Shown here: positions 3,624 to 29,507 of the stretch, piece by piece
Layout: each line of letters begins with the position of its first letter
Numbering within the stretch: the first letter of the stretch is position 1
The notes under the pieces: generated by a model
What the model was told of the DNA's origin: nothing
The model's database searches: none
What the model saw: only the letters and a program-made list of their open reading frames with translations
Assembly: GCA_963791795.1 (NCBI GenBank)
Contig: CAWBTP010000020.1
Span: 837 to 64,836, forward strand
DNA length: 64,000 bases
Direction: 5' to 3'
Origin: an uncultured Acidimicrobiia bacterium
GTDB lineage: Bacteria > Acidobacteriota > Terriglobia > Versatilivoradales > Versatilivoraceae
Position numbers and translations under genes: made by a program

Positions 3624-3654
3624 AGTAGCTACGGTTATTGCAGATATCCGTTTT

Positions 3655-6814: not shown

Positions 6815-6877
6815 GCCGAACGACGCATTCGACCGGACTCGCCGCAAGCGGCTCGCCGGTCAATTCGAACGTTCGGC
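6815..6877 (+). other. attC-like site (short class): GCCGAAC ... GTTCGGC
   Basis: 63-bp imperfect palindrome starting with RYYYAAC-like GCCGAAC and ending with GTTCGGC. An SD and the ATG of the next ORF follow 20 bp later. Confidence 0.55.
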
Positions 6878-7303: not shown

Positions 7304-7364
7304 GCCGAACAAATCGCTGCAGCCGACGTGCGAGGACGCACGCGGCGCCGCAGAGGCGTTAGGC
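7304..7364 (+). other. attC-like site (short class): GCCGAAC ... GTTAGGC
   Basis: 61-bp hairpin (CGTGCG/CGCACG stem) bounded by GCCGAAC and GTTAGGC. The next ATG is 32 bp downstream. Confidence 0.6.
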
Positions 7365-7395
7365 CGCCATTGGTGAATAGGAAAGGTATCGCGTG

Positions 7396-7995: not shown

Positions 7996-8092
7996 GGCCG
8001 AACCAGACGCTGCACCTGACCGTCGGGGCATGACGGCTTTCCCAGGTTCATAGCTCCCCGTGCCCCGCCGGCAGGTGAGCTTGGTCGTTAGG
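7996..8092 (+). other. attC-like site: GCCGAAC ... GTTAGGC (97 bp)
   Basis: The inner stem CACCTGACCGTCGGGGC pairs with GCCCCGCCGGCAGGTG, and the outer core sites pair. The next ATG is 21 bp downstream with a GAGGAAG SD. Confidence 0.6.
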
Positions 8093-8112
8093 CTTCGACG
8101 ATTGAGGAAGAG

Positions 8113-8887
8113 AATGCACAAGAATTCGCGTAGACAGCCACCGAAGAGAATGCTCTTCAAGCCAGCCCAGGCGGACCCTGGCACTTATCTCGACGCACGT
8201 AGAGACCTTGTAGACCTTCTCTCTTATGCGGACGCCTATCACCACGCGGGGCGAAAACTGGCGGCTGCTCCACGACAAGGGGGTCTATTGCGGGATCTTG
8301 AAGCGCTCCCCATCCTTTTCCTGTATCGCCATGCTCTCGAACTCTACCTCAAATCTCTCGTCGTCTTTGGAACATGGCTTCACGAGGCCAAGGGGCTGCA
8401 TTCCCGACCCTTCGATACCCTCCTGAAGAGTCACCGGTTGGCCGCCTGTCTCCCCGAGCTGAAAAGACTATCCGAGGATGCAGGCTGGGGATGGGCCACA
8501 AGTGACGAAAGCCTAAGATCCTTCACAGATCTCGAGCGGTGCGTGAACGACTTAGACAAGGTCGATCAGCTGTCGTATGCATTTCGATATCCCGTGGACA
8601 AGCACGGGAGCCCTTCTTTGCAGAACAATTTGCCCTTTTCCTTGCCTCATTTCTGCGCAGAAATGGATCACGTCTTATCCGCACTACACGAGATCGCCCT
8701 TGGTCTCGATCTGGCAGCGCATTATGAAGGTGAAGCGCGGTTCTTCGAGTTGCGAAACAGAGGTGACCACGAAGCTAACCCGCAGCGTAACCCGACTGCC
8801 CAAAAAACGGGCGGCGGGTTCGCTGAAGTAGTTAGGCCCTCTACAAGTCCATGCTTACTCTTCCGGAAAAAGACATCGATGCCATAG
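8113..8887 (+). CDS. hypothetical protein with a HEPN-like Rx4-6H motif; cassette
   Basis: 258 aa. It contains ...SYAFRYPVDKHGSP (R-x5-H) and no other recognisable domain. Confidence 0.5.
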
Positions 8888-9249: not shown

Positions 9250-9360
9250 GAGCAATATGCAGTGGCTCAGCAAATCTACAGATGGGAATGAGGCGCTACG
9301 TCAGGTTCCGTATTCAGCAAGGGGCAGCCCAGTCACGAAGTTCGACAAGTCAATCCAGCA

Positions 9361-10214: not shown

Positions 10215-10297
10215 TGAAGCGCTCGTCCTCTTGCGGCAGATTCGCGATGAAATTCGCGCGCTGGGCTCGGCCAGGAACCGCGACACGGGAGGCGCCA

Positions 10298-11047
10298 ATG
10301 AGCAAAGCAGTTGGTCGCGCCGCCGAGCAGGTGTATCGCGGCATCTGGCATGGACTGGTGAAGTGGTTCAAGGTCCCGGATGAGCCGCCAACGCTTCCCA
10401 CCAGCCCCGGCGAGCAGCTTGAGCGTTTCAAGCCGGCTGAAGGATTTCTCCGCTATCTCCTGCTGTTTTTCTGGATCGGGCTGGTCATCATTGACCTGAT
10501 ATTCCTTGGCATATGGTTTGCGAGTTTCGCGATCAGCCTGAGGCTGGGGTTGGCACTGTTGCCGGTGTTCCTCGCGGTCGCGGTCCTTCCCGACATCGTC
10601 GTCTACGTCGCGATCCATTTGCGATACGACACGACGTGGTATGTCCTGAGCGATCGAAGCGTCCGCATTCGGCGGGGGATCTGGACGATCACGGAAACGA
10701 CCATTACGTTTGAGAATGTTCAGGATGTGAAGATCGACCAGGGACCGATCCAGCGCGTTTACGGTATATCGGACATTGTGATCCAGACGGCCGGCGGCGG
10801 CGGTGCATCAGCGGAGCATCATGGCGCCGGCACGACAACGCATATCGGCCGAATCGAAGGCATCGCCGATGCAGCGCGAATTCGCGACCTGATCATGAAC
10901 CGCGTCCGCCGATCGCGCTCGGCGGGGCTGGGCGATGAACACAAGACCAATTCTGATCATCCTGCCACGCATATCACCTGTTGGACGGCAGGCCATTTGG
11001 AAATGCTTCGCGAAGTCCGGGTAGCACTGTCAGAACTTCGCTTGTGA
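10298..11047 (+). CDS. YdbT-like PH-domain membrane protein (start uncertain, 10181-10298)
   Basis: TM segments, then DRSVRIRRGIWTITETTITFENVQDVKIDQGPIQRVYGISDIVIQTAGGG (a bPH_2 repeat). Confidence 0.65.
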   Translation: MSKAVGRAAEQVYRGIWHGLVKWFKVPDEPPTLPTSPGEQLERFKPAEGFLRYLLLFFWIGLVIIDLIFLGIWFASFAISLRLGLALLPVFLAVAVLPDIVVYVAIHLRYDTTWYVLSDRSVRIRRGIWTITETTITFENVQDVKIDQGPIQRVYGISDIVIQTAGGGGASAEHHGAGTTTHIGRIEGIADAARIRDLIMNRVRRSRSAGLGDEHKTNSDHPATHITCWTAGHLEMLREVRVALSELRL

Positions 11048-11113
11048 GAACGCAGCAGTGCGAGCGCGACGGTGAGATCAAGATCGGCGGCACCGGCCCA
11101 ACCACTGCTTCCA

Positions 11114-11164
11114 GCCGACCCGCCGCCAAAAGCAGCGGCGGGCGGCTGAACCGTAACGTTCGGC
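11114..11164 (+). other. attC-like site (short class): GCCGACC hairpin ... GTTCGGC
   Basis: The hairpin CCGCCGCCAAAAGCAGCGGCGGGCGG is followed by GGCTGAACCGTAACGTTCGGC. It shares an AAAAGCAGCGGCG..GGCTGA consensus with sites at 20770 and 27721. Confidence 0.4.
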
Positions 11165-11360: not shown

Positions 11361-12320
11361 ATGCACATGAACAGCCGTTATCTTGTCGATCCTGAGCTTG
11401 TTGCGTTTCTCGACCTGATCCCTTCCACCTCACTCACGGCGGAAAGTCTGGCCACAAACCGGGCAAGAGCCGCCGCGATGGTAGCGAGCCTGTCGGTGCC
11501 CGACTATCCCAACCTTACAGTACGCGAACGGCACGTACCTGGTCCCGCAGGCGCGCCGGATGTCCGTATTTTGCTGTACCAACCGACGCTGACAACACAG
11601 TCGACAGCTGGCCTGCTTTGGCTCCACGGTGGCGGCTATGTCGGCGGCAATGTGGATCTTGAGGACGTACGCGCCCGGGCGATGGCAGCCGAACTTGGCT
11701 GCGTCATGGTGTCGGTGGACTACCGCTTGGCACCCGAGACACCCTTTCCCGGTCCCGTTGAGGATTGCTACGCCGTGCTGCGTTGGCTCCACGCCAATGC
11801 TGGAGAGCTGGGCGTCGACACCGGCCGACTGGCGGTTGGTGGTGGAAGCGCCGGTGGTGGTCTTGCTGCAGCGCTCGCGCTGCTTGCCCGCGACCGAGGT
11901 GAGATACCGCTCGTCTTTCAGGTGCTCAGCGCCCCCATGCTCGATGATCGCACCGTCACGCTCGAGCCGCCGCACCCGTACACCGGTGAATTCATCTGGA
12001 CGCGCGAATCAAACCGCTTCGGCTGGACAGCGCTGCTCGGCCAGGAGCCGGGGAGCGACGGCATATCGCCCTATGCGGCGGCCGCTCGAGCGGAAAATGT
12101 GGCGCACCTCCCACCCGCCTTCATCGCGGTGGGCGCACTCGATCTGTTTCTTGAGGAGAACATGGAGTATGCCCGGCGACTCATCCACGCTGGCGTGCCA
12201 ACAGAGCTTCATGTGTACCCAAGGGCGTACCATGGGTTTCAGATGGTTCCTTCTGCCTGGGTGACACAGGCTGTCGCACGCGAGCAGATCAGCGCTATTC
12301 GGCGGGCACTAAAGTTGTAA
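11361..12320 (+). CDS. alpha/beta hydrolase, esterase/lipase (HSL-like family)
   Basis: HGGGY oxyanion motif, GGSAGG nucleophile elbow, conserved His near the C-terminus. Confidence 0.85.
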   Translation: MHMNSRYLVDPELVAFLDLIPSTSLTAESLATNRARAAAMVASLSVPDYPNLTVRERHVPGPAGAPDVRILLYQPTLTTQSTAGLLWLHGGGYVGGNVDLEDVRARAMAAELGCVMVSVDYRLAPETPFPGPVEDCYAVLRWLHANAGELGVDTGRLAVGGGSAGGGLAAALALLARDRGEIPLVFQVLSAPMLDDRTVTLEPPHPYTGEFIWTRESNRFGWTALLGQEPGSDGISPYAAAARAENVAHLPPAFIAVGALDLFLEENMEYARRLIHAGVPTELHVYPRAYHGFQMVPSAWVTQAVAREQISAIRRALKL

Positions 12321-12591: not shown

Positions 12592-12718
12592 GCCCAACAA
12601 CCGGCTGAAGCTGACCCGGCTTACGCGTTCTTTTTGGAAACGGCAGCGAGACTTTCCAAGGTTCTCTCCGGCTCTCCAGCAGTGGGAAGCCGGGCAGCTT
12701 AGCCGAGAGACGTTAGGC
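12592..12718 (+). other. attC-like site (long class, 127 bp): GCCCAAC ... GTTAGGC
   Basis: Core-site pair, with a long imperfect stem (CCGGCTGAAGCTGACCCGGCTTACGCG pairs with CAGCAGTGGGAAGCCGGGCAGCTTAGCCG) and a central GGAAAC...TTTCC hairpin. The next ATG is at 12726. Confidence 0.7.
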
Positions 12719-12725
12719 ATCGCTT

Positions 12726-13376
12726 ATGGCAGCGTCGCAAGAGCTTCACCCCACGGCGGCAATGCTTCTTCCATACGAAGAGCGCCTCAAAGACGACATG
12801 TTGTACTTCAGAAAACTGGGCGTGAAGTACGAAGCAGACGCTCTCATTGACCTGCTAAAGCGCGAAAAGCCAAAGTCGGCCATGCCAGTCGCTTGCCACA
12901 GTTTGGCCGACCTGAACGCAAAGCAGGCTATTCCAGTCCTTAAGACACTAGCTGACTATCCAGTACAGGACGTAAAGGCAACGTCAGTGTTAGCGGTGGC
13001 TAGACTAGCCGGAAGCGACGAGACACCGTGGCTCGTTGAATGCCTTTCTAAGAAAAGGACGTTAAAGGGCTATGTGCTATGGGCTCTAGCCGCGGTCGGA
13101 GATCCTGCGGCATACGGGGCCGTGAAAACATGGTTTGAGAAGCATCTTCGGAAACTCGAGAGAAATCCGAATAGTGATTCGCTCGGAAATGTGGTGTTTG
13201 CCGTTGCGTACCTTGAACAAATGACAGAACACCGTCCCGAAGTTGTAGGGTTGCTTGATCGCTTCAAACTTGTGGCGCCAAAGCTCCCGCGAAACATTCC
13301 GTCAGAACTTGGCCACTTCACACGAACGTTTGCAGACTGGAAAAACAAGCATGGCCCGGGGGAGAGCGATGTCTAA
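12726..13376 (+). CDS. hypothetical protein (helical-repeat-like; lower GC than neighbours); cassette
   Basis: 216-aa intact ORF. Its stop codon TAA lies inside the inverse core GTCTAAC of the following attC-like site. Confidence 0.65.
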   Translation: MAASQELHPTAAMLLPYEERLKDDMLYFRKLGVKYEADALIDLLKREKPKSAMPVACHSLADLNAKQAIPVLKTLADYPVQDVKATSVLAVARLAGSDETPWLVECLSKKRTLKGYVLWALAAVGDPAAYGAVKTWFEKHLRKLERNPNSDSLGNVVFAVAYLEQMTEHRPEVVGLLDRFKLVAPKLPRNIPSELGHFTRTFADWKNKHGPGESDV

Positions 13377-13499
13377 CGAAAGGCTTGCAGCGAACCCAGG
13401 TTGACGCGTTTTTTTTGGAAACGGCGGTAGAATTCTTCCAAACACGCTCTGCGTCCCCAGCAGTGGGAGGCGGGGCGGCTTAGCTGGGAATCGTTAAGC
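13371..13499 (+). other. attC-like site (long class): GTCTAAC ... GTTAAGC
   Basis: Near-identical to the 12592 element. The stop codon is embedded in RYYYAAC. The next ATG is at 13523 with an SD. Confidence 0.7.
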
Positions 13500-13522
13500 G
13501 GACGAAAGGCAGAAGGACGTCG

Positions 13523-14380
13523 ATGACAGATCCAATCAGACGCAAGATACTGAAAACGGGAGCCGCGGCGACGGTGATGGCCGCTGCGCCGCGCGTGTTT
13601 GCGCAGCAGACTAGGAAAGGGGGAGCTGCCATGTCCTTCTACGAAAAAGGCGCCGTTCGCATCCACTATGAGGAGACCGGCTCCGGCTTCCCATTAATGC
13701 TCATCGCCGGCGGGGGGCTGAACTCGACGATCTCCGGCCTGACCAATCCCTTCAACCCGATCGAGGAGTTCAAAGGAGAGTACCGCTGCATCGCGTCGGA
13801 CCTGCGCAACGCCAACAGCGGCCAGTCCTCCGGCCCGCTCGAGATCGACCGGCCGTGGGATGCCTATACCGATGACCACCTCGGTCTGATGGATCACCTG
13901 GGCATCGAGAAGTTCATGGTGCTGGGCTTCTGCATTGGCGGCCCTTTCATTTGGAACCTCCTCCGGCGGGCGCCGAATCGTGTGGTCGCCGCCGTGCTGG
14001 CGCAGCCCAGCGGGTCCCGTCCGGAGATGCGCGATCTTTTCTACGACAACAATATGAAGGGTTGGGGTCCGGTGCTGGTAAAGCGCCGGCCCGAGATCTC
14101 GATGGAGATGGTCGACAAGTTTCTGACCAAGATGTACCGCACCAACCCCGATTTCGTCTTCACCGTGACACGCGACTTCGTGCGCAACTGCCAGACGCCA
14201 GTACTGATCCTCCCGGACGATATTCCGGCGCATCCGTACGCTGTCGCCATGGAGGCCGCAATGCTCGCGCCGAAGGCCGAAGTGAGCATGTTCCCGTGGA
14301 AGGAGCCCAAAGAACGGATTCCATTGGCGGTACGCCAGATACGTTCCTTCCTCCGGGCGCATCGGCCTGCCCCTGCTTAG
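13523..14380 (+). CDS. alpha/beta-fold hydrolase with twin-arginine signal peptide
   Basis: N-terminal RRKILKTGAAATVMAAAPRVFA, then an alpha/beta hydrolase core. Confidence 0.8.
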   Translation: MTDPIRRKILKTGAAATVMAAAPRVFAQQTRKGGAAMSFYEKGAVRIHYEETGSGFPLMLIAGGGLNSTISGLTNPFNPIEEFKGEYRCIASDLRNANSGQSSGPLEIDRPWDAYTDDHLGLMDHLGIEKFMVLGFCIGGPFIWNLLRRAPNRVVAAVLAQPSGSRPEMRDLFYDNNMKGWGPVLVKRRPEISMEMVDKFLTKMYRTNPDFVFTVTRDFVRNCQTPVLILPDDIPAHPYAVAMEAAMLAPKAEVSMFPWKEPKERIPLAVRQIRSFLRAHRPAPA

Positions 14381-14443
14381 ACGGCGGCGTCTATCAGACA
14401 AGGCGGCTGACGTCCAGTGACCGCGTCAGACCTTGCTGACGCC

Positions 14444-14490
14444 GTCTAACCTTGCGTTGCACCGACGGCGGCCGGTGCGGAACGTTAGGC
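14444..14490 (+). other. attC-like site (short): GTCTAAC ... GTTAGGC, preceded by an inverted repeat TTAGACGGCGGCGTC / GACGCCGTCTAA
   Basis: Canonical core pair. The next ATG (14527) is 37 bp downstream with a GAGAGGA SD. Confidence 0.5.
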
Positions 14491-14526
14491 AGCAAACACG
14501 ATATGGCGACGCCTCAGAGAGGATCA

Positions 14527-15389
14527 TGAAATATCTAAGTAAAGTAATCGTGATCGCCTGCGCTATTGTGGTGCTGCTTGGATCAACCCGTGTGGCGGCT
14601 CAGGTAAGCGTTGATCTCGAGAACAGGTATTCCAACGTCGGTGCAATCATGGTCTGGCGCGTCGACAGTTCCGGAACGCCCCTGCAGTTACTCGGCTTCG
14701 TAAGCGGCACCCTGATTCGTGATCGGGTAATGGTGACTGCCGGTCACTTCACGGCTCCGGCCAAGGCACTCGGCGAATTGCCACCTACCCTTCGATTTTT
14801 TGCGAGTTTCAGTCCGACGGATGCGAAGGACCCGAAGAACTGGATTCCAGTGGTCTGGCAAGCTACGCACCCATCGATGCCGCCCTGCCCACCGCCGCCT
14901 CAGTGCGATCCAACCGACGAAATCCTGGTCGCTCCACTGGAGCCTGGCATTGCCGACGTCGGACTAGTCTTCCTAGAATACTCGCCCAAGGGAGTCGAGC
15001 CCGCCCGTTTCGCTGGGCAAGCCAGGCTCGAGAGAGCCGAAGGAGCGCAAACAACAATCGTGGGATACGGTACAACGACACCGCGGAACCGGAACGCGCC
15101 GTTCGATATAGCGACATGGGATGGGAAGCGGCGCGTCAGAACTTCGATATTGCGTAGAGTTGTCGACGAGACGTGGGCGCTCTGGTCGATACCCAGCTAC
15201 GTTTGCTCCGGTGATTCCGGTGGTGGAATCTTTCTGAAACCAAGTGCCGATCGCGCTGAGGAGCTGATTGCCAACGTGAGCGACGGCGGCCTCGACTGTC
15301 GTCGTCATAACAACAACAATCGCTTGGATACCCGCGCCATCCAGACCTGGATCGACGACACAATAAGGCAACAACTCGGAAGGATTTGA
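14527..15389 (+). CDS. secreted trypsin-like (S1 family) serine protease
   Basis: Signal peptide MKYLSKVIVIACAIVVLLG. Contains TAGHF and GDSGGG motifs. Confidence 0.8.
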
Positions 15390-15495
15390 GTACGCCGCAT
15401 CGACTGCTCGTTGCACGCGAGCGCGGCGGCTGGAGAATACGGGGATTCAACGTCAGCTCGTCGTTGCTAGCCAACGGGTTCCGCGACGTCAGAGC

Positions 15496-15641
15496 GCCTA
15501 ACAACCGCGTCGGGCAGGCGCACTTCGTGTGCTCGACGAGCAAAGTCGGGGCGCCTTTGCGAACGCTCTCGTGAGCCTGCAGGACAAGCATTCCTGACCG
15601 ACGATGACTTCGGTTGCAGTGATCAGAGGTCTTAGTTCGAA
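15496..15641 (+). other. putative attC-like site: GCCTAAC ... GTTCGAA
   Basis: A canonical inverse core opens the site. The GTTCGAA end overlaps the SD 9 bp before the ATG at 15650. Confidence 0.4.
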
Positions 15642-15649
15642 GGAGCCAC

Positions 15650-16891
15650 ATGCCCAGCCGTCGAACCTTCTTGTCGCTTCTTGCAGGTGGTGCTGTGGCC
15701 CCGCATTTAGCTTTCGCGCAAGGGCGCCCACGTCGGTTGGCGTTGTATGCCAATGTTGGGCCGGTGCTCACGCACTACGACGTTGATCTCTCCAACGCGG
15801 AATTGGTCAAACGTGATTCGGTGACATTGCCTGCTGGCGTGCAGTACTGCTGGCCGCATCGCAACCGGCGCTATATATATGTGGCTTCAAGCAGCAGCCC
15901 TGCGGGCAATGTGCAGATCGGCACCGCACACCACGTGACGGCGTTCAAGATCGATCCCGCCACGGGTGCGCTCAATCAGATTGGCGATCCGGTGCGCCTG
16001 CCGGTGCGGCCGATCCACATGACACTCGACAACGAATCGCAGCACATACTGGTGGCGTTCAACAACCCCAGTTCATTGCGGGTGTATCGGATTCACGAGG
16101 ATTTCACCCCTGGGGAAGAGGTGCTGCAAGGCACGATGGATGCTGGCATCTACGCGCATCAAGTACGCGTGACGCCAGACAGCCGCCATGTGGTGCTGGT
16201 GACGCGTGGCAACGAAGGCACGGCGCAAAGGCCCGAGGACCCGGGCGCGCTGATGGTGTTCGACTACAAGAACGGCGTGCTCTCCAACGAATACAAGATC
16301 GCACCCAACGGCGGGCGTGGCTATGGCCCGCGCCATTTGGATTTTCATCCGACGAAGCCGTGGATGTACGTGTTGATCGAAACGCAGAACCAGATCCACA
16401 TGCACCGCATGCAGGATGGCAAACCGCTACCGGAAGTCGTGTTCAACAGGACCACACTACTGGAGCCCAACAACATCCGCTCGCGCCAGGCGGCGAGCGC
16501 GGTGCACGTGCATCCGAATGGGCGTTTTGTGTACGGCGCAAACCGCTCGCAAGATGTGGTGGATTTCAATGGAAAGAAGGTCTACAAGGGCGGCGAGAAC
16601 AGCATCGTCTTATACGCAATCAGCCAGGAGACCGGCGAACCGACCCTAATCCAGCACATCGAAACGCAAAAGATCCATCCGCGCACGTTCCACATGGATC
16701 CCAGCGGGCGCATGCTGGTGGCGCAGCACAACCTGCCGGTGGATGCGCGCGATGGCGACACTGTGCGCACCGTGTCGGCAGGGCTGTCGGTGTTCCGCAT
16801 GAACCAGGACGGCAGGCTCACTGTTGCACGCACTTACGACATCGACGTCGGTGACAAGATCATGTGGTGGATGGGGATGGTGCCGCTGTAA
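15650..16891 (+). CDS. lactonase (7-bladed beta-propeller, 6-phosphogluconolactonase-like) with Tat-type signal
   Basis: N-terminal RRTFLSLLAGGAVAPHLAFA, with beta-propeller lactonase family similarity throughout. Confidence 0.75.
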   Translation: MPSRRTFLSLLAGGAVAPHLAFAQGRPRRLALYANVGPVLTHYDVDLSNAELVKRDSVTLPAGVQYCWPHRNRRYIYVASSSSPAGNVQIGTAHHVTAFKIDPATGALNQIGDPVRLPVRPIHMTLDNESQHILVAFNNPSSLRVYRIHEDFTPGEEVLQGTMDAGIYAHQVRVTPDSRHVVLVTRGNEGTAQRPEDPGALMVFDYKNGVLSNEYKIAPNGGRGYGPRHLDFHPTKPWMYVLIETQNQIHMHRMQDGKPLPEVVFNRTTLLEPNNIRSRQAASAVHVHPNGRFVYGANRSQDVVDFNGKKVYKGGENSIVLYAISQETGEPTLIQHIETQKIHPRTFHMDPSGRMLVAQHNLPVDARDGDTVRTVSAGLSVFRMNQDGRLTVARTYDIDVGDKIMWWMGMVPL

Positions 16892-17002
16892 AGACTAAGG
16901 AGCGCCAGGTGTATGAGACTCGATCGCAGCGGCTGCTGTGGCGCCCGAACGGAGGCGGCTTTCGCGCCGGTTCTCACGGCGGTGAATACGGGTTCCATGT
17001 CG

Positions 17003-17130
17003 GCCGAACCTTCAGCCGAAGCTGCCCCGGCTTAATCGTTCTTTTTGGAAACGGCAGTGAAGATTTAGAAGGTTGTGCTCTGCCTCCACAGCAGTGGGAA
17101 GCCGGGCAGCTTAGCCGTGAGTCGTTAGGC
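17003..17130 (+). other. attC-like site (long class): GCCGAAC ... GTTAGGC
   Basis: Third near-identical copy of the 127-bp element. Confidence 0.65.
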
Positions 17131-17359
17131 CGGCAACGGACATCGATGTGGTCGGTTGCGGCGACGATATCCCACAGGCATGGGTCGGCCGAGCAATGAG
17201 ACTTGTGCTGGTCCCAGCCTTGGTGACCCGTATATGACCCGTGCGCCGGTCGCGGAAGATAGTGCAGGCCGGCTCGAACTGCTGCCGGCCTTCGCCATGG
17301 CTCTCATGCGGTACGGCACGTGAGGGCAGTACGATCCGAATCTTCCAAGGAGTATCGCG

Positions 17360-19393
17360 ATGTTTCGTGCCCTTCAGCGCGTTTTTCTGTGTGTCGTCTT
17401 CGGCGGATCTGCGGCCATCGTCCACGCGCAGACGCCAATCGTGGCCGCGGATCTCTACAAGCTTCGCTCCGTTGGCAACGTGGCGTTCTCCCCGGACGCG
17501 ACGAAGATCGCCTACGTGATTAGCAGCAATCCGACCGAGGGCCGGCCGTACTCGCAGTTATGGATCATGGATCTGACGAGCTCTCGTACAATGCGGGTTG
17601 GTGACGAGCAGAGTCGCGGATCGTCTCCGGTCTGGTCGCCCGACGGCACGCGCATCGCTTTCCAGGGGCGAATCGGGAGCGGCGAGAGCGGCGTGATCGT
17701 CGTGCGCGCCGACGGCACCGGCCCGAAGTTCATCGCGCCGAAACTCGGAACGAACAGCGCCGCGATCACGATGGAAGGCAACGGCATCGCCTGGTCGCCG
17801 GACGGCGGTCGGCTTGCCATCGTACATGCGACGCCCGGTCCCGAGACCGCCAACGCGGACGGCGACCCGATGGTCATCACGCGTTATCTCTACAAGCCGA
17901 CCGCGTCGGAAGGCAACACGCGGTTCAACGACAACCGGCGCCTGCACATCTTCATCGCGGACCTTGCGACGAAGCAGGTGCGTCAGCTCACGGACGGCAT
18001 CTACTCCGAGCACTCCATCGATTGGTCGCCCGTATCGGACGAGATCGCCTTTGTCTCGAACCGCGAGCCCGACCCGGACTTCGTCTTCAACAACGATCTC
18101 TTCGCGGTGAAGGTCTCGGATGGTTCGATTCGCCGCATCACCGCGACCGAGAACGCCGAGTATCGCCCGCGCTGGTCACCGGACGGAAAGACGATTGCCT
18201 ACCAGGCCACCCGACGCGGCATCACCGACCTCGAAACGACGATGGAGGACACGCATGTGTGGGCGGTGAATGCCAATGGCACAAACCGTCGCGAGGTCGG
18301 AGCGTCCGTGGACAATCGCCAGGGGGCGCCGGAGTGGACGCGCGACGGCTCGTCGGTCTACGCAACCGTGCAGGAGCACGGCCACGTCCGCCTTTATCGG
18401 CTGAACGTCAGCAGCGCACAGGCGGCAGTTGTCATCAACGATCCGGGTAGGGTCGGCTCGTTCAGCATTGGGCGGACGGGGCAGATCGCGTATGCGTACT
18501 CAAGCCCGTCGGATCTCGCACAGTTGCATGTGCGAAACGCGCAGGGTGCCCCGCCTGCCCGCGCGCTGACCGACCTCAACGCAGACGTGCTTCGCGGCAA
18601 GGCCATTGCGCCGATGGAGTCGTTCACGTTCGTGAGCAACGACCTGAAGCACGAAGTCGAGGCATGGCTCGTAAAGCCCGTCGGCCTCACCACAACTTCG
18701 TCTCATCCGCTCATTGTCGACATCCATGGTGGTCCGCACGGTGCGCAGGGACCGGCGTTCAACCTTCAGAACCAGGTCTATGCCGGACTCGGATGGGCGG
18801 TGCTGATGGTGAACTACCGTGGGTCGACCGGCTACGGACAGGCGTGGTCCGACGCGGTGTTCCGCGATCAGAACGGAGACGAAGCGCAGGACGTGCTCTA
18901 TGGCGTCAACGCCGCCATCCGGCGCTACACGTGGATCGACCGCAACCGTCTCGGAGTCGAGGGGGGCAGTTACGGCGGCCAGCTCTCTGCGTGGCTCGTC
19001 ACTATCACGAACATCTTCAAGGCGGCGATCCCGCGCTGGCCGATCATCAACCTCGTCTCCTACAACTACATGACGTACTACCCGATGTACGAAGAGATGG
19101 AATTCGGGGCGAAGGTCCACACCGCTGACTGGCTCGATCAGCTCTGGCGCCGGTCAGCGATCCGCTATGTCAACGGGGTGAAGACGCCGACGATGCTGAT
19201 GCACGGGGAGAACGACAACGACGTGCCGATTGCCGAGTCCGAGCAGTTCTACATGGGACTGAAGGACGCTGGTGTCGAGACGGTGATGGTGCGCTACCCG
19301 CGCGAAGGACACGGGCTGAGCGAACCGAAGCACACGGTGGACATGATCACACGGTCTATCTCTTGGTACCAGAAGCACTTTCCGAGTCGTTGA
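17360..19393 (+). CDS. S9 family peptidase (prolyl oligopeptidase/acylaminoacyl-peptidase) with N-terminal beta-propeller
   Basis: 677 aa with a signal peptide and repeated WSPDG motifs. The C-terminal domain carries GGSYGG. Confidence 0.9.
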   Translation: MFRALQRVFLCVVFGGSAAIVHAQTPIVAADLYKLRSVGNVAFSPDATKIAYVISSNPTEGRPYSQLWIMDLTSSRTMRVGDEQSRGSSPVWSPDGTRIAFQGRIGSGESGVIVVRADGTGPKFIAPKLGTNSAAITMEGNGIAWSPDGGRLAIVHATPGPETANADGDPMVITRYLYKPTASEGNTRFNDNRRLHIFIADLATKQVRQLTDGIYSEHSIDWSPVSDEIAFVSNREPDPDFVFNNDLFAVKVSDGSIRRITATENAEYRPRWSPDGKTIAYQATRRGITDLETTMEDTHVWAVNANGTNRREVGASVDNRQGAPEWTRDGSSVYATVQEHGHVRLYRLNVSSAQAAVVINDPGRVGSFSIGRTGQIAYAYSSPSDLAQLHVRNAQGAPPARALTDLNADVLRGKAIAPMESFTFVSNDLKHEVEAWLVKPVGLTTTSSHPLIVDIHGGPHGAQGPAFNLQNQVYAGLGWAVLMVNYRGSTGYGQAWSDAVFRDQNGDEAQDVLYGVNAAIRRYTWIDRNRLGVEGGSYGGQLSAWLVTITNIFKAAIPRWPIINLVSYNYMTYYPMYEEMEFGAKVHTADWLDQLWRRSAIRYVNGVKTPTMLMHGENDNDVPIAESEQFYMGLKDAGVETVMVRYPREGHGLSEPKHTVDMITRSISWYQKHFPSR

Positions 19394-19412
19394 GCGCGAA
19401 TCGCCGACCGCG

Positions 19413-19449
19413 TATTGGCAGTACGGGTGGCTGAGCTTGGTCGTTAGGC
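19413..19449 (+). other. mini attC-like hairpin ending GGTCGTTAGGC
   Basis: A 37-bp stem (CGCCGACC pairs with GGTCGTTAGGCG) lies directly after the stop codon. It may be a degenerate site. Confidence 0.3.
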
Positions 19450-19649
19450 GCATGAAGACCCCTGTGAAAATCGACTCGGGCATGACTGAGGCTCTTGTGA
19501 GTCAGGTTGACTGGCAACTACCTCCCTGAGTCAAGAGATGCGCTGCAGCGAACGGCGCGGGCCGTCGCGGTTCCAATTATCACGCTTCGTGCCCGCCGTC
19601 TTTGAGCTTGGGTTGTCGGGCCCATTCAAAACGTACGGGGAGGTGGATA

Positions 19650-20110
19650 ATGCGACGATTTTCGGTACTGCTGGTCCTTCATGTTCTCGCCGCGACAGTT
19701 CATGCGCAGCATGCCCCATCGAGTCTTATGACAGCAATTCAGGGTTACGTAGGAAAGAAAAATCATCAAGAACGACCTCCGTTCCGACACGCTCTGACCG
19801 ATCTCAACGCCGACGGGCAGGCTGACGCTATCGTTCTGTTGTTGGGTTCGAGCTGGTGTGGGTCTGGTGGGTGTAACATGCTCGTATTTCGTGGTACCGG
19901 TTCACGTTGGTTTCTGCAAGTACCATCACCAACGAACCGATTAGGGTGTCGCCTGAAAACACGCAAGGCTGGAAGACTCTGATCGTGTATTCGAAAGAAA
20001 GGGGTGATGTCCTGATGCAGTTCGACGGAACCCACTATCCGTTGAATCCGTCGCTGCAATCGAAAGCTACGACTGGTCAGGTGGAAGCCGCTGAAGTTCT
20101 GCTGAAGTAG
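19650..20110 (+). CDS. small secreted hypothetical protein, apparently frameshifted near 19905
   Basis: Signal peptide MRRFSVLLVLHVLAATVHA. The protein continues in a second frame (19907-20110) that ends at a stop inside the next attC region. Confidence 0.35.
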
Positions 20111-20128
20111 TGAACCTGTCCCAAGCTG

Positions 20129-20255
20129 TGCCTAACCCGCGGCTGAAGTTGAGCCGGCTGATGCGTTCTTCTTGGAAACAGTTGCGAAAGTCTCCAAAGT
20201 TCTCTCCGGCTCGACAGCAGTGGGAAGCCGGCCAGCTTAGCCGTGAGTCGTTCGA
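20129..20255 (+). other. attC-like site (long class): GCCTAAC ... GTTCGAC
   Basis: Fourth copy of the 127-bp element, with a canonical inverse core. Confidence 0.65.
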
Positions 20256-20326
20256 CCTCTCTCGGCACTTCGTCTCCATGATATCCTAGCAACAAAGATC
20301 TCCCCTAGTTGGGTTGGAGAATTGGC

Positions 20327-20533
20327 ATGAACTTCACAATCGAGCTTGAGCAAGAGATCGATGGTCGCTGGATAGCGGAAATCCCGGAACTTCGGGGAGC
20401 TTTGGTCTACGGGCAGACCCGGCAAGAGGCAATTGCTAAGGGACAGGCTCTTGCGCTCCGGGCCCTTGCTGAGCAGCTCGAGCATAACGAAGCAAGCTCC
20501 GATCTTGTACACGTTACCTTCAACGCTGCATGA
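20327..20533 (+). CDS. hicB: type II antitoxin HicB family
   Basis: MNFTIELEQEIDGRWIAEIPELRGALVYGQTRQEAIAKGQALA is the HicB/UPF0150 signature. Confidence 0.85.
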   Translation: MNFTIELEQEIDGRWIAEIPELRGALVYGQTRQEAIAKGQALALRALAEQLEHNEASSDLVHVTFNAA

Positions 20534-20742
20534 GCCAGTGGCCAGCGACAAGAGCCAAACGAGTTCTTGCGGCACTTCTCCGCATTGGTTGGACGATCAA
20601 ACGCCAATCGGGCTCTCACCGGACGCTGGCGCGTGTGGGCTGGCCTGACATGGTGTTTGCTTTCCATGACAGCGACGAGATCGGTCCTCGGATGTTGGCT
20701 AGGATTGCCAAACTGTCTGGATTGAAGCCTGAAGACCTTTAG
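20530..20742 (+). CDS. hicA: type II toxin HicA family (YcfA-like mRNA interferase)
   Basis: 70 aa: ...RAKRVLAALLRIGWTIKRQSGSHRTLAR... It overlaps hicB by 4 bp. Confidence 0.85.
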   Translation: MSQWPATRAKRVLAALLRIGWTIKRQSGSHRTLARVGWPDMVFAFHDSDEIGPRMLARIAKLSGLKPEDL

Positions 20743-20769
20743 CGATTCCTTCAAGTTCCCTAAGGGGAG

Positions 20770-20835
20770 GCCGAACCCTGCGCTGCAGCCGACGCCGCCG
20801 AAAAACAGCGGGGGGCTGATGCCTGACCGTTAGGC
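20770..20835 (+). other. attC-like site (short class): GCCGAAC ... GTTAGGC
   Basis: 66 bp. A GTG start with an SD follows 17 bp later. Confidence 0.5.
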
Positions 20836-20851
20836 GGAAAGAGGCCCAATC

Positions 20852-21037
20852 GTGTGGCGACCGTACGCTCACGGAACGACTGTCGGCCAGCGCGGAACCG
20901 AGGAAGGTGTCATCGACCGCGACGAGCAGCACGATGGGGGCGCGCGAATCACGCTCGAGCGCGACTGCCGCAACATCCCGTTCGCGGTCACGTGCGCCAT
21001 TCTAAGGTTGGTCGTCCACACTCAGTACGTTGGCTGA
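20852..21037 (+). CDS. small hypothetical ORF (61 aa, GTG start)
   Basis: Positioned exactly like a cassette first ORF (SD GGAAAGAGG). No similarity recognised. Confidence 0.25.
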   Translation: MWRPYAHGTTVGQRGTEEGVIDRDEQHDGGARITLERDCRNIPFAVTCAILRLVVHTQYVG

Positions 21038-21199
21038 GCACCGTGCGCTGGAGGGCGAACTGCCGGCACTGGAGAATGGGTGGCGTGAGGCGGAGGAAAT
21101 CGCTGGAATCGCCAATTCGCTTGCGTGCCGGCACGCGTCGAAGAATTCCTCGCGCGTCACCGCCGTGAATTCCCGAGAAAGCGATCAAGAGCCTTCCGA

Positions 21200-22465
21200 A
21201 TGCCGAATAAGTTGGTATCTTCGATTTCCGTGGCGCAACCAAGCCGACTTTCCGCTATCGGTCCAGCGATTCTGCTGACCGCGACCAGCGTGGGCGCGGG
21301 CGATATCCTCACGGGCAGCCTCGCCGGCGCGGAGGCTGGCATGGCGGCGCTCTGGGCGGTCCCTGCCGGCGTCATCCTCAAATGGACGCTCACCGAAGGC
21401 ATCGCCCGCTGGCAGATGGCGACCGGCACGACGCTGCTCGAAGGGTGGGTGACACGGCTCGGGCGCTGGATTCAGTGGGTGTTCTTTGGCTATCTGCTGC
21501 TGTTCTCGCTGGTGACCGGCGGCATGCTTGCGAGCGCTTGCGGAGTTGCGGGTGCCGCGCTGATTCCGCTCGGCGAACCGCAGACTTCGCGTTTCGTTTG
21601 GGGCGCGATGCACTCGCTGGCCGGCCTTGCGCTGATCTGGATCGGCGGATACGCGCTCCTGAAGAGGATCTTGGCGGGCTGCGTCGGCGCCATGTTCGTC
21701 ACGGTCACGCTGACTGCGTTCCTGCTCGCGCCGGATTGGGCGGCTGTTGGCCGCGGGCTGACTCCTTCGCTCCCGCCAGAGGGCGCAGGTTGGATCATCG
21801 GGCTAATCGGCGCGATTGGCGGCACGATGGCGCTGATCAGCTACGGCTACTGGATCCGCGAGGAGGGCCGTACGGGCGAAGAAGGGTTGCGAGCCTGCCG
21901 CTTTGAGCTGGTTCTGTCTTATGCCGTGATCGGGCTCTTTGGGCTCGCGGTAGTGATCATCGGCTCGCGCACGTCGGTTCGCGGTCAGGGAAATCAGCTC
22001 GCGCTGCTGCTCGCAGATCAGCTCGCAACAAATCTCGGACAGAGCGGCAAATGGATCTTCCTCGTTGGATTCTGGGCGGCGGTGTTCTCGGCGCTGCTTG
22101 GCGTATGGCAGAGTCTGCCTTACCTGTTCACCGATTTCCTGCTGCTGCGGAAGGGCTCTGGAGTGGCTTCGTTGCCGCAGGGAGCGGCGGAGCGATCGCG
22201 ATCTTACCGCGGCTATCTCGCTTGCCTCGCGACCGTACCGCTGTTTCTGTTGCGTTGGCCGGTGCAGGAGTTACAGCTCGCGTTCGGACTGACGGGTGCG
22301 ATGCTTCTGCCGTTGCTCGCACTGACGTTGCTGATCATGAATAATCGCACCGCGTGGGTCGGCGACCGCTTGCGTGCGACCCTTGCATTGAATCTGGTGC
22401 TCGCAGCGGCGCTCGGATTCTTCGCATTCACCGCCGTGCGCGAGGTGATGCGCCTTGCCGGCTGA
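21200..22465 (+). CDS. mntH: Nramp-family divalent metal transporter
   Basis: Multi-TM protein with GPAILLTATSVGAGDILTGS and MPNKLVSS... start. It has Nramp consensus regions. Confidence 0.8.
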   Translation: MPNKLVSSISVAQPSRLSAIGPAILLTATSVGAGDILTGSLAGAEAGMAALWAVPAGVILKWTLTEGIARWQMATGTTLLEGWVTRLGRWIQWVFFGYLLLFSLVTGGMLASACGVAGAALIPLGEPQTSRFVWGAMHSLAGLALIWIGGYALLKRILAGCVGAMFVTVTLTAFLLAPDWAAVGRGLTPSLPPEGAGWIIGLIGAIGGTMALISYGYWIREEGRTGEEGLRACRFELVLSYAVIGLFGLAVVIIGSRTSVRGQGNQLALLLADQLATNLGQSGKWIFLVGFWAAVFSALLGVWQSLPYLFTDFLLLRKGSGVASLPQGAAERSRSYRGYLACLATVPLFLLRWPVQELQLAFGLTGAMLLPLLALTLLIMNNRTAWVGDRLRATLALNLVLAAALGFFAFTAVREVMRLAG

Positions 22466-23423
22466 GGAGACTGATGAAATGCCCAACATCGTGATACCCG
22501 ACGACTATCCAGTCGTCATGGGATCGAGTCCATCATTCCTGAAGTGGCGACAAAGCACGCCGGCCACATACTTCGATACGCTGCCCGGATCGGAAGACGG
22601 GCTGCTCGCGCGCATCCGCGACGCCGAGATCGTGATCAACGTTCGCTCGTCGACCCGATTCCCCGAGAGCGTTTTCGCAGCGTGTCCCAAGCTGAAGCTG
22701 CTGTCGCTATGGGGCACGGGCACGGACAACGTCGACCTCGCCGCAGCGAAGCGCCACCGCGTCACGGTGACGAACACGCCGGGAGTATCAGCGGCCTCGA
22801 TCGCGGAGCATTCCCTGATGCTGGCGCTCGCCGTCGCCCGCCGTGTAGTCGAGATTCACAACGGCGTTGTGGCGGGCGGTTGGCCGCGTGGCCGGTCTGT
22901 AGAGCTTCAGGGCAAGACGCTGGGCGTGATCGGACTCGGTGCGATCGGACGGAGATTCGCGCGTCTCGGACAGGGAATCGGCATGCGAGTGATTGCATGG
23001 ACGATGCATCCGAACCCTGCGCTCGGGTTCGAATTGGTGGAGCTCGACGATCTGCTGGGCAGGAGCGACGTAATCAGTCTTCACTTGCGGCTATCACCAC
23101 AGACCGCAGGTTTTCTCGGGCGCGATCAGTTTGCTTTGATGAAGCCCGGTGCGATTCTGATCAACACGGCGCGTGGACCGATCGTCGATGAGGCTGCTTT
23201 GCTCGACGCTCTCAGCGAGCGCCGACTCGCGGGTGCGGGCCTCGATGTCTTCGACGTCGAGCCTTTACCCGCAGGCCATCCGCTGACCAAGCTCGACAAC
23301 GTGGTCCTGACTTCGCACTGTGCGGGAATCACGCCGGAGGCGCTCGAAGCCGGCCTTGCGCTGGCGATCGAAAACGTCGTCGGCTTCCTGAACGGCAATC
23401 CAACGAACGTGGTTACACTGTAA
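22455..23423 (+). CDS. D-isomer-specific 2-hydroxyacid dehydrogenase (glyoxylate/hydroxypyruvate reductase family)
   Basis: GVIGLGAIGRRFARLG NAD-binding motif and catalytic R/E/H region. Confidence 0.9.
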   Translation: MPAEETDEMPNIVIPDDYPVVMGSSPSFLKWRQSTPATYFDTLPGSEDGLLARIRDAEIVINVRSSTRFPESVFAACPKLKLLSLWGTGTDNVDLAAAKRHRVTVTNTPGVSAASIAEHSLMLALAVARRVVEIHNGVVAGGWPRGRSVELQGKTLGVIGLGAIGRRFARLGQGIGMRVIAWTMHPNPALGFELVELDDLLGRSDVISLHLRLSPQTAGFLGRDQFALMKPGAILINTARGPIVDEAALLDALSERRLAGAGLDVFDVEPLPAGHPLTKLDNVVLTSHCAGITPEALEAGLALAIENVVGFLNGNPTNVVTL

Positions 23424-23505
23424 TGATGAAACCGACGCGTGCTCGCGAAGACATAACCCAATCAGCGTTGGGTCTACTCTTTCCTGCTGCGACGGATGAC
23501 GAGCC

Positions 23506-23633
23506 GCTTAACAAGCCGGCTGAAGCTGGCCCGGTTTATGCATTTTGTTTGGAAACGCCGCAGGAACTCTCCAAAGTTCCCTCCGACTCCCCGGCAGTGG
23601 GAAACCGGGCAGCTTAGCCGTGAGGCGTTAGGA
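23506..23633 (+). other. attC-like site (long class): GCTTAAC ... GTTAGGA
   Basis: Fifth copy of the 127-bp element. The next ATG is at 23670 with an AAGGAGA SD. Confidence 0.65.
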
Positions 23634-24137: not shown

Positions 24138-24169
24138 TTTGACGGGGTCTTGAGGGTCCCGGCCGCTCC

Positions 24170-24229
24170 TAACCAACTGGCTCGAGCCGACCGCGAAAAG
24201 CACCCGGCGGCTCATCGGGGCCATTAGGC
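24170..24229 (+). other. possible short attC-like site: CCTAAC ... ATTAGGC
   Basis: Matches the short-class internal consensus (GAGCCGACCGCGAAAAGCACCCGGCGGCTCA). A second weak candidate lies at ~24393-24453 (GCTAAC...CTAGGC). Confidence 0.3.
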
Positions 24230-24518
24230 ATCTTGTTGCGGAAACCACGATGGATCTCGCACTTCGAGTGAACACACAGGGAGGTACGACAGTCGTCCGA
24301 CTCCGGATGAAGGATGGCATCCACTCTCGCAGATCTCTGGCATGCTTCTACATCTCGGGTTCAAAGTCTCCGGCCAGTACCTTCCCTGAAGAGGCTAACC
24401 CGGTGCTCCAGCCGGTGCCCGCCAAGAGCTGCGGGCACGCTCAGCTCTGATCGCTAGGCGACTGAGCGCACACCGAGAATTTCCACGCAGTGAGCAACCA
24501 TCGAACTAGGAGAACAAC

Positions 24519-25292
24519 ATGAAAATCGTCGTCATCGGCGGCAGCGGACTTATCGGAAAAAAGCTCGTAAAGAATCTTCGTCAGCAGGGCCACGAGGTGG
24601 TGGCGGCATCACCATCATCGGGTATCAACGCCGTCACTGGCGAGGGACTGGCGCAAGCGCTTGCGGGCGCTCAGGTGGTCGTCGATGTGGCGAACTCGCC
24701 GTCGTTCGAAGACAAGGCCGTTTTGGAGTTCTTCGAAACGTCGGGTCGGAATCTCCTGGCCGAGGAAGCAGCCGCAGGCGTCGGACATCACGTGGCGCTG
24801 TCGGTCGTCGGCACCGACCGCCTGCTCGCCAGTGGTTACTTCCGCGCGAAGATGGCCCAGGAGAATCTGATCAAGACTTCCCCGGTCCCATACACGATCG
24901 TCCGCGCCACGCAGTTCTTCGAGTTCGTGGCCAGCATCGCCCAATCGGCAACCGAGGGGCAGACGGTTCGGTTGCCGCCAGCGCTGATGCAGCCCATCGT
25001 GTCGGATGACGTCGCCGCCGTCATGGCTGAGGTCGCGGTCGAGGAACCGTTGAACGGCACGATCGAACTGGCGGGTCCCGAACCGATCCGTCTCGACGAA
25101 CTCGTTCGGAAATTCCTGAGCGCAAACCGAGACGCGCGGACGGTGACCACGGACGCACGCGCGGGTTACTTCGGCACGCCGGTGAACGATCAAAGTCTCA
25201 CCCCCGGCGATCACCCGCGCCTCGGCCCGACGCGTTTCGAGGACTGGCTCAACCGCACCATACCTCAGAGAACGTCAAAGGCGACATCGTAG
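24519..25292 (+). CDS. NmrA-like/atypical SDR NAD(P)-binding oxidoreductase
   Basis: MKIVVIGGSGLIGKKLV Rossmann start. Confidence 0.85.
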   Translation: MKIVVIGGSGLIGKKLVKNLRQQGHEVVAASPSSGINAVTGEGLAQALAGAQVVVDVANSPSFEDKAVLEFFETSGRNLLAEEAAAGVGHHVALSVVGTDRLLASGYFRAKMAQENLIKTSPVPYTIVRATQFFEFVASIAQSATEGQTVRLPPALMQPIVSDDVAAVMAEVAVEEPLNGTIELAGPEPIRLDELVRKFLSANRDARTVTTDARAGYFGTPVNDQSLTPGDHPRLGPTRFEDWLNRTIPQRTSKATS

Positions 25293-25381
25293 ATTGTTCC
25301 TGCCAAACCAGCGGCTGAAGGTGCCCCGCCTCCTACTGTGGGTGATGACGAGGATAACTCTAGCAGGCTCAACAGGACTCT

Positions 25382-27110: not shown

Positions 27111-27710
27111 ATGGACACATCCACCCGAGTTCCGACGCTCGAAGAGTTCTTGACCTTCTGCCAGGCAGCGTGCGAGTTCCTCATCCGCGAGTATGGGTTC
27201 GTGCGACTGCCCTCACCCTTGGAGTACAACCAACACAGCGTATGCTTTCGAAAGGGTGATTTCGGCGTTGACGTCTATGGTGAGAACTACGGCGAGACGG
27301 CATCGTGCGATCTCGTGCGAGGTGGGGATCGGTTGTACCTCGGCCTGTTTGTGCCCGTAGCACAACGCGAGGCGCCAAGGCGTGAGGGGCCTCGGCCCGG
27401 GCAGCTCGCTCAGCTTCAAGACATTGCCACCCGGCTGAAGCTTTATGCGGCGGACTTCTTGCGCGGCGATTCCAACCGCTTTGACTCGGCTCTCGTGGAA
27501 TGGAGGCCCGTCGCTCAACCTCGCCAAGTGACGGCAGCGCAATGCCTGGAACGCCAGCGACAACAAGCTGTCACGGCCGCGGGCCACGCAAGCGGGCGGA
27601 CTATGCTGCAGTCGTGCGCCTGCTTCAGCCACACGCAGAAGCGTTGTCACCGCACCAGCGGCGGATGCTTGAGGTTGCGCGCAACCGGTTGGCGGACGAA
27701 GCGGGCTAGC
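27111..27710 (+). CDS. hypothetical protein, possible C-terminal frameshift
   Basis: MDTSTRVPTLEEFLTFCQAACEFLIREYGFV... The C-terminal part is better in the frame of 27500-27709, which ends just before the next attC-like site. Confidence 0.4.
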
Positions 27711-27720
27711 ACCGCATCCA

Positions 27721-27774
27721 GCCGAGCCACGTCACCAAAAGCAGCGGCGTGCGGCTGATGCCTGATCGTTAGCC
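27721..27774 (+). other. attC-like site (short class): GCCGAGC ... GTTAGCC
   Basis: AAAAGCAGCGGCGTGCGGCTGA consensus. Lies immediately after the stop codon. Confidence 0.4.
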
Positions 27775-27880
27775 GGACGAGTCAGGGGAGATCGTGCGCA
27801 GATGGTGGGGCGCTCCGACAGAGCCTTCGATGTATGATATCCATCGCGAACACTGAGCAGTCTCCGAAAAGATAAGAAAG

Positions 27881-29441: not shown

Positions 29442-29507
29442 GGCCAACCCGCCGCGCAGCCGACGTTGCCGAAAGACAGCAGCGCGGCTGATGCTTGGCC
29501 GTTGGGC
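29442..29507 (+). other. attC-like site (short class): GCCAAC ... GTTGGGC
   Basis: 66 bp with a central hairpin. The next ATG (~29537) follows an AAGGAA SD. Confidence 0.5.

Follow-up and report, generated by a model that had tools for sequence, protein, structure and literature searches.

Five long repeats as probable long-loop attC sites of a partly decayed cassette array in an uncultured acidobacterium

The array and its two classes of site

The DNA analysed here is a stretch of 64,000 nucleotides (assembly GCA_963791795.1, contig CAWBTP010000020.1, positions 837 to 64,836), referred to below as the window, and the subject of this work is a run of gene cassettes that occupies its positions 6815-29507. 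This 22.7-kb array holds about 23 cassettes, with every open reading frame (ORF) on the + strand, and its gene content includes esterases, peptidases, a lactonase, an Nramp protein with a dehydrogenase, hicBA, and DUF3237, NmrA-like, amidohydrolase and bPH_2 proteins. It is punctuated by 15 confident attC sites, five of them long and ten short or intermediate (61-97 nt), and by about seven degenerate attC remnants. All sites are on the + strand and lie 3' of + strand ORFs, with cassette-sized gaps between them (0.2-3.6 kb from site to site). Very probably, the five repeats of 127-129 nt are long-loop attC sites of one co-oriented, partly decayed cassette array, in which the two classes of site do not stand for two sources of cassettes. 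The identification as attC draws on signatures of sequence and structure, covariation, co-orientation, cassette spacing, and identical cassettes found with different neighbours. In the list of sites that follows, R1 denotes a covariance model built from nine short sites of the window and four from two related loci, and run with filters off.

6815..6877, + strand: short attC, 63 nt, first confident site of the array; R1 56.2 bits, E 5.7e-13; comes after the frameshifted SBP_bac_11 pseudogene 5957-6748
7304..7364, + strand: short attC, 61 nt; R1 47.7 bits
7997..8093, + strand: intermediate attC, 97 nt; R1 40.5 bits, E 1.3e-8, outside the R1 training set; closes the RibD_C cassette 7393-7977
8773..8837, + strand: short attC, 65 nt; R1 52.8 bits
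9362..9439, + strand: degenerate attC; R''=GCCTAAC, R' mutated to GCAAGGC; R1 E 5.9
11096..11164, + strand: short attC, 69 nt; R1 69.5 bits; closes the two-gene bPH_2 cassette 9723-11047
12592..12718, + strand: long attC, 127 nt; R''=GCCCAAC, R'=GTTAGGC; 126.5 bits; closes the Abhydrolase_3 cassette (Pfam; ORF 11361-12320)
13371..13499, + strand: long attC, 129 nt; R''=GTCTAAC, R'=GTTAAGC; 86 bits; closes the HEAT-repeat cassette (Pfam; ORF 12726-13376)
14444..14490, + strand: very short attC-like site, 47 nt; R''=GTCTAAC, R'=GTTAGGC; R1 12.8 bits, E 0.56 (weak)
17003..17130, + strand: long attC, 128 nt; R''=GCCGAAC, R'=GTTAGGC; closes the lactonase cassette (Pfam; ORF 15650-16891)
19377..19449, + strand: degenerate short attC; R'=GTTAGGC intact, R'' lost; R1 E 8.5
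20130..20256, + strand: long attC, 127 nt; R''=GCCTAAC, R'=GTTCGAC (non-canonical); comes after the frameshifted small secreted-protein ORF 19650-20110
20770..20835, + strand: short attC, 66 nt; closes the hicB/hicA toxin-antitoxin cassette 20327-20742
23506..23633, + strand: long attC, 128 nt; R''=GCTTAAC, R'=GTTAGGA (non-canonical); closes the two-gene cassette of Nramp (21200-22465) and 2-hydroxyacid dehydrogenase (22479-23423)
24167..24229, + strand: short attC, 63 nt; R'=ATTAGGC; closes the DUF3237 cassette
24393..24459, + strand: short attC, 67 nt; R'=GCTAGGC; closes a cassette of 230 nt with a single ORF (24250-24450, 66 aa; no Pfam match)
25302..25375, no strand assigned: long-site remnant; GCCAAAC+CGGCTGAAGGTGCCCCGCC, then the complement of the 3' arm; partial profile match on the minus strand, E 1.7e-4
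~27704..27774, + strand: short attC, 71 nt; R1 53.4 bits
29300..29348, + strand: truncated, degenerate attC after the frameshifted LNT/CN_hydrolase ORF 27881-29305; R1 E 0.29
~29442..29507, + strand: short attC, 66 nt, last site of the array

Repeat discovery, alignment and profile search of the window all place the five long repeats, every one of them on the + strand, where a first-pass annotation of this DNA had put them (its copy at 20129 starts at 20130), and their R'' and R' boxes, their stems and the profile search bear out its view of them as attC sites. The conservation of the long copies is bounded exactly by the heptamers RYYYAAC on the 5' side and GTTRRRY on the 3' side. A 27-base degenerate pattern taken from their 3' arm matches the window five times, each time at one of these copies, with no match expected from 100 shuffles, and an nhmmer profile of the long family recovers exactly five full-length copies. 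They are less alike than the >80% identity first claimed: identity over the whole site is 63-82% (mean 71%, or 76% leaving out 13371), two of the ten pairs exceed 80%, and it is just the last 54 nt at the 3' end that reach 81-89% against the reference copy. The common outer stem, the inner hairpin TTGGAAA...TTTCCAA and the terminal CAGCAGTGGGAAGCCGGGCAGCTTAGCCG..GA..CGTTAGGC are present in the long copies as had been described, except that the stem is lost in 13371 and the ends of 20130 and 23506 deviate; the hairpin that had been given as GGAAAC...TTTCC can form in 84% of cells, but shows no covariation. Copy 13371 is the outlier of the five, with a fold z-score of ~0, and the site is probably dead because its outer L stem no longer pairs. 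Copy 20130 has one bottom-strand stem mismatch, and only 12592 and 17003 look fully intact.

The R1 search of the window returned ten + strand sites with E<=1.3e-8; it gave no match with E<0.05 outside 6815-29507 on either strand, and none on the minus strand. Together with nhmmer, the covariance model superseded a crude scan for R boxes and duplexes, which was noisy and strand-blind. All 15 confident sites begin and end with R'' and R' boxes or one-base variants of these. The short sites do share the consensus proposed for them, ..CAGCCGAC..AAAAGC..GGCTGA..GTTAGGC, at a mean within-class identity of 51%, but their sizes are 47 nt, 61-71 nt and, in one case, 97 nt, rather than 50-66 nt. The division into two size modes holds, with one at 47-97 nt (mostly 61-71) and the other at 127-129 nt.

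Structure, relatives and known attC systems

Folded as single strands, copies 12592, 17003 and 23506 have a 7-bp R box at the base and above it an asymmetric bulge (3 nt opposite 6 nt), followed by stems of 5, 6 and 8 bp that are separated by single unpaired bases and topped by ~60 nt. The L stem of the long sites carries two extrahelical bases 6 bp apart. Among 56 distinct copies of the long family the L stems are 96% and 89% paired, and the R box cells are 74% paired, register shifts notwithstanding. Two L-stem pairs show compensatory change among these copies (CG<->GC, 28/25; CG<->UA, 28/19), and these switches define two subtypes of the long class. The first unpaired base is G or C depending on the family member, as is expected because it has no partner. 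The L helix of the short class is 89% paired, with five of its eight pairs changed on both sides, and the structure proposed for the short sites is 76% paired, versus 29-45% with partners slid, with 11 pairs changed on both sides.

Both classes have the canonical attC layout, in which an R'' box (RYYYAAC) pairs with an R' box (GTTRRRY) and an asymmetric unpaired spacer separates these 7-bp boxes from an L inverted repeat whose stem has two extrahelical bases 6 bp apart. They differ in the stem cap only, which is a loop of a few bases in the short sites and ~60 nt in the long ones. The long cap contains the conserved blocks CGCGTTCTTTTTGGAAAC ... CTCCG ... GCAGTGGGA and the TTGGAAA/TTTCCAA hairpin. 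An alternative inner hairpin, GRGRAAC/GTTYYC, was set aside as unsupported, with only 49% of its cells pairing.

Relatives of the long family are numerous. The 3'-arm pattern finds seven loci in the genome collection, six in Acidobacteria metagenome-assembled genomes (MAGs; one Bryobacteraceae) and one in a MAG labelled Acidimicrobiia, and the loop pattern finds 69 metagenome contigs from soil, which together make up a related set of 76 loci or contigs, or 77 sequences with the window. The long-family profile identifies 116 long copies in the related set, co-oriented within every locus and spaced at 0.4-2.4 kb, including ten in a row in L016, and a short-class sequence profile identifies 97 short sites in the same loci. 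Copies away from gene boundaries, or without a fixed orientation, had been named in the first-pass annotation as what would speak against attC sites; there are none outside the array in the window, and the copies are co-oriented in all 76 loci. Plasmids gave nothing related to the array: the matches in the plasmid collection were 40-50 nt long and due to chance. As a family, the long attC sites are widespread and common in soil metagenomes, and as an instance of a system already known the array is clear but ordinary. What it adds is an attC family with sharp limits, present lineage-wide in soil Acidobacteria, whose integrons are poorly described for the phylum as a whole; for the window itself, the outcome is mostly annotation, that of a decaying integrase-less cassette array. 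These Acidobacteria MAG relatives, and a threonine aldolase of the window that is 87% identical to the protein of an Acidobacteria MAG, indicate that the host is an uncultured soil acidobacterium.

Two of the related loci are unusual. L004 (CAVVYL010000059.1) has a long-class site with a poor R'' box in the MAG labelled Acidimicrobiia, which could be a mis-binned contig or a case of cross-phylum transfer. The copy in L067, at 358-432, is reduced to the conserved core of the loop (positions 29-102 of the long-family model), with the R and L arms missing.

The best-known attC sites are close to the short class. In an independent test on two annotated class 1 integrons, R1 picks out the aadA1 attC of R100/Tn21 (41.7 bits, E 1.5e-9) with the strand correct and the position exact, in the interval from aadA1 to qacEdelta1, and it also matches an aacA4 cassette attC (36.2 bits). 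The match to the R100 site means that the short class is the same kind of site as the textbook attC. The short sites have the layout of the class 1 attC (the 59-base element; aadA1 of In2/Tn21) and much of its sequence, GYCTAAC..CARGCCGAC..GCGGCT.A..GTTAGRY, whereas the sites here are chromosomal and environmental, without resistance genes or intI1, and the long class has an extra ~60-nt loop that is absent from the class 1 type. The long class is linked to attC only by its architecture and by its alternation with the short class in the same arrays. By analogy, its closest counterpart is the family of Vibrio cholerae repeats (VCRs), the 123-126-nt attC sites of the Vibrio superintegron. VCRs likewise are attC sites of ~125 nt that form a lineage-specific family conserved over the full length, loop included, with R and L boxes, extrahelical bases, and many co-oriented copies that each close one cassette. 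The sequences of the two families are unrelated, however, and the family described here has a host in the phylum Acidobacteria, a lower identity (63-82%) and long copies interleaved with ~65-nt sites, so that the array is not homogeneous; no integrase was seen next to it.

Taxon-specific attC families are an established idea, and a covariance model of Acidobacteria attC sites (120 sites, 106 positions, 30% sensitivity) is given by Ghaly et al. 2021 (PMC8352920). The start of its consensus, GCCUAAC...GUUgAAGCgGAC, agrees with the R''/L'' arm of the sites here, including the two unpaired bases. In the part of the model that spans positions 1-58 and the loop end, there is no strong loop consensus and the CGCGTTCTTTTTGGAAAC block is absent, so the long family is not singled out there.

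Several observations weigh against our interpretation of the array. Three of the five long copies are defective, 13371 through the loss of its stem and 20130 and 23506 through non-canonical R' boxes. Membership among attC sites was judged with a locally built model, R1. In 45 long copies chosen without regard to it, the first loop block, GCGTTCTTTTTGGAAAC, reaches 1.56 bits per column, which matches the stems (1.52-1.66), with the middle of the loop below it at 0.95 bits per column; conservation of this block goes beyond what the classical attC model explains or requires. Furthermore, a tblastn search of the 64-kb window with the annotated IntI1 of R100 found no integron integrase (best E=1.2), and none of the 76 related contigs has a canonical intI.

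Because the window and the related contigs are without an integrase, recombination of these sites by an IntI is inferred by analogy. Following the established model of integron recombination, each attC would fold its bottom strand into a hairpin, the integrase would bind the R and L boxes, with the extrahelical bases setting the choice of strand, and it would cut between the G and TT of R'. The unit of an ORF and its downstream attC could then be excised as a circle and reinserted.

Array type and the meaning of the two classes

A cluster of attC sites lacking an integron integrase is called a CALIN, reportedly the IntegronFinder term of Cury et al. 2016. The array likewise has at least two attC sites <4 kb apart (the distance allowed being <=4 kb), no intI within 4 kb, pseudogenes and degraded sites. 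Within the window it is most likely a partly decayed, integrase-less cluster of this kind, given the missing integrase, the sites without box or stem and the frameshifted cassette genes. Among the last, ORF 27881-29305 (LNT_N/CN_hydrolase) has two frameshifts, through deletions of 2 nt and 1 nt, when set against its 95%-identical counterpart in L052, which make it a recent pseudogene; over the first ~380 nt it shows no similarity to L052 at the DNA level. No Phage_integrase domain came up when the long ORFs of the window were scanned with Pfam, and the intI of a complete integron is not present within the window. The first-pass annotation had invoked homogeneous attC sites as a hallmark of sedentary chromosomal integrons, which does not apply here: the array is large (~23 cassettes), but it is heterogeneous, with two classes of site, and no integrase accompanies it in 64 kb. 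The integrase-free flanks extend for 6.8 kb to the left of the array and 34 kb to the right, and the CALIN label depends on those 6.8 kb. The flanking genes are of chromosomal housekeeping types and indicate that the array is located on a chromosome. The left flank (1-6800) is a gene graveyard with an insertion sequence (IS) and pseudogenes. The features identified on the two sides are:

483-2480: IS, transposase gene of the DDE_Tnp_1_6/DDE_Tnp_1/DUF772 type (693-2252, - strand), among the pseudogenes of the left flank
2594-3623: 2-hydroxyacid dehydrogenase gene, frameshifted, left flank
~4242-5490, - strand: chorismate synthase pseudogene, 78% identical to the intact 416-aa gene of L070
5957-6748: solute-binding protein gene SBP_bac_11, frameshifted, left flank
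29537-30424: EamA transporter gene, following the last array site
30571-30740, + strand: cyclic di-AMP (c-di-AMP) riboswitch (RF00379, 86.4 bits), right of the array, after the EamA gene

It is possible, if doubtful, that the array is instead the far end of a complete integron of the sedentary chromosomal kind. Its intI and attI would then lie just to the left of window position 1, with the IS insertion and the pseudogenes between them and the first attC. The source contig, of about 147 kb, is longer than the window, which has only 6.8 kb to the left of the first attC, and the IS (transposase 693-2252) and the gene wreckage there could have entered between intI and the array; yet the 64 kb contain no IntI-like sequence and none of the 76 related contigs has a canonical intI. 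No attI-like junction or Pc promoter was recognisable left of 6815, attI sites being without a general model, and the many decayed sites and genes are as expected without an integrase.

The two classes of site occur together in 45 of the 77 sequences, and in 44 of these 45 all sites are on one strand. Their order is interleaved, as in the window (SSSSLLLLSLSSSS), in L016 (LLLLLLLLSLSLS) and in L050 (SSLSSLSLSLL). Homologous cassettes can carry either class. The hicBA cassette of the window (20257-20835) is 81% identical to that of L050, with a short attC in the window and a long one in L050, and the classes of the upstream attC sites are swapped too. A small ORF cassette, 87% identical between L016 (4970-5362) and L060, has a long attC in the former and a short attC in the latter; the homology breaks at R'' and returns in the last 12 nt, GATCCGTTAGGC. 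The LNT-like cassette of the window (27775-29348) is 95% identical to L052 12906-14068, and ends in a truncated site in the window, where L052 has a full long attC. In two pairs of contigs, L011/L074 and L061/L065, cassettes of 99-100% identity follow different upstream neighbours, a signature of cassette mobility.

In the L016/L060 and window/L052 pairs the homology breaks at or just past the R'' box. This position suggests replacement of the attC, for example by an R''-to-R'' deletion or exchange. Sites might be swapped through recombination at R'', or through elements with an IS91-type and an IntI-like gene that sit at the same position (described below). The conservation of the loop blocks may reflect a recent common origin or a second function: in many soil genomes CGCGTTCTTTTTGGAAAC and GCAGTGGGA would be conserved to the same degree as the recombination stems, which themselves co-vary. 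A proposal that joins these observations, namely that the unpaired loop has a second, sequence-specific function and that the attC swaps exactly at R'' boxes record attC replacement or the de novo formation of cassettes, seems to us unlikely. If it were true, candidate roles for the loop would be a binding site for a host or integrase accessory factor, a folding aid or a regulatory signal.

The mixture of classes had originally been taken to suggest two sources of cassettes or an array assembled in stages. We consider it very unlikely that the classes correspond to two independent cassette sources, two integrase specificities or a two-stage array. The classes are distinct at the level of models, the short-site model giving the long sites <=11 bits, and the long sites are grouped in the middle of the array, from 12592 to 23633, but the class order is interleaved in the window and in other arrays, and homologous cassettes (hicBA, the small ORF, the LNT-like gene) carry differing classes. 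The comparison of base composition and codon usage that had been recommended revealed no difference: cassettes with long and short sites have a GC content of 0.590 and 0.589 (Mann-Whitney p=0.89) and a GC content at third codon positions (GC3) of 0.652 and 0.681 (p=0.68), in small samples of n=6 and n=12, and the flanking genes (GC 0.577, GC3 0.638) are near both. Two attC classes are not two cassette sources, because the classes interleave lineage-wide and the same gene carries either. For the same reason, that one gene can carry either class, the size class of an attC is an unreliable marker of cassette origin, which bears on the practice of assigning origin by attC type and on how attC sites join genes.

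That the 127-nt repeats are unrelated to integrons, and are instead repetitive extragenic palindromic (REP) elements, bacterial interspersed mosaic elements (BIMEs), repeats like miniature inverted-repeat transposable elements (MITEs), terminators or a regulatory RNA, can be dismissed with near certainty: they are intergenic, palindromic and multicopy, with loop blocks conserved in sequence, but their conservation ends exactly at the R'' and R' boxes, their stem has the canonical two extrahelical bases, they are uniformly oriented in 77 sequences and alternate with sites that match the R100 aadA1 attC, terminator- and promoter-like matches in the array are at chance level with none coinciding with a repeat, and an Rfam scan of the window has no match at the repeats, its sole match being the c-di-AMP riboswitch outside the array (Rfam has no attC family).

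IntI-like elements, remnants and other repeats

Several related contigs contain an element of 2.4-2.6 kb (L011 318-2884, L019 209-2605, L028 5092-7661, and L075), and its ends are also found in L002, L003 (2941-2966), L005 (770-799), L051 and L066. It codes for an IntI-like tyrosine recombinase of ~285 aa, whose best match in the PDB is VchIntIA, and for an IS91-family transposase. The element is bounded by inverted GTTGAAC...GTTCAAC ends, GTTGAACTNARCCGC ... GCGGYTNAGTTCAAC, and the GTTCAAC of its right end stands exactly where a long or a short attC should have its R'' box. The element could be an insertion sequence that targets attC sites, or else a cassette of an unusual kind. A search for it gave only chance-level matches in the window, from which the element is absent.

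The tblastn matches beside long attC sites in L003, L005, L011, L019, L028 and L075 were considered as intI genes and rejected. They score 174.8 bits, against an integron-integrase cutoff of 265, the IntI-specific region of ~40 aa is missing in the alignment to VchIntIA (PDB 2A3V), and an IS91-family transposase gene comes next in both loci tested (L011 and L019).

Some of the decayed sites have features of their own. Sites 7997-8093 and 19377-19449, otherwise unlike each other, have an identical 17-nt 3' end, GAGCTTGGTCGTTAGGC, and a similar tail, GCTTGGTCGTTAGGC, is found on a long site of L052 (~9207-9331). ORFs 24519-25292 and 25382-26707 have no complete site between them, only the remnant 25302-25375. 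This remnant has the R''/L'' arm of the CCCCGCC subtype, ends after the complement of the 3' arm, and scores with the profile on the minus strand only.

A palindromic repeat, GATTCCCGC-N4-GCGGGAATGAC, has three copies in the window (3656-3680, 3711-3734 and 33246-33269), two of which form an inverted pair; it has a REP-like look and is unrelated to the attC sites. The riboswitch at 30571-30740 lies upstream of the gene for a 713-aa SPFH/Band 7 protein (30930-33071).

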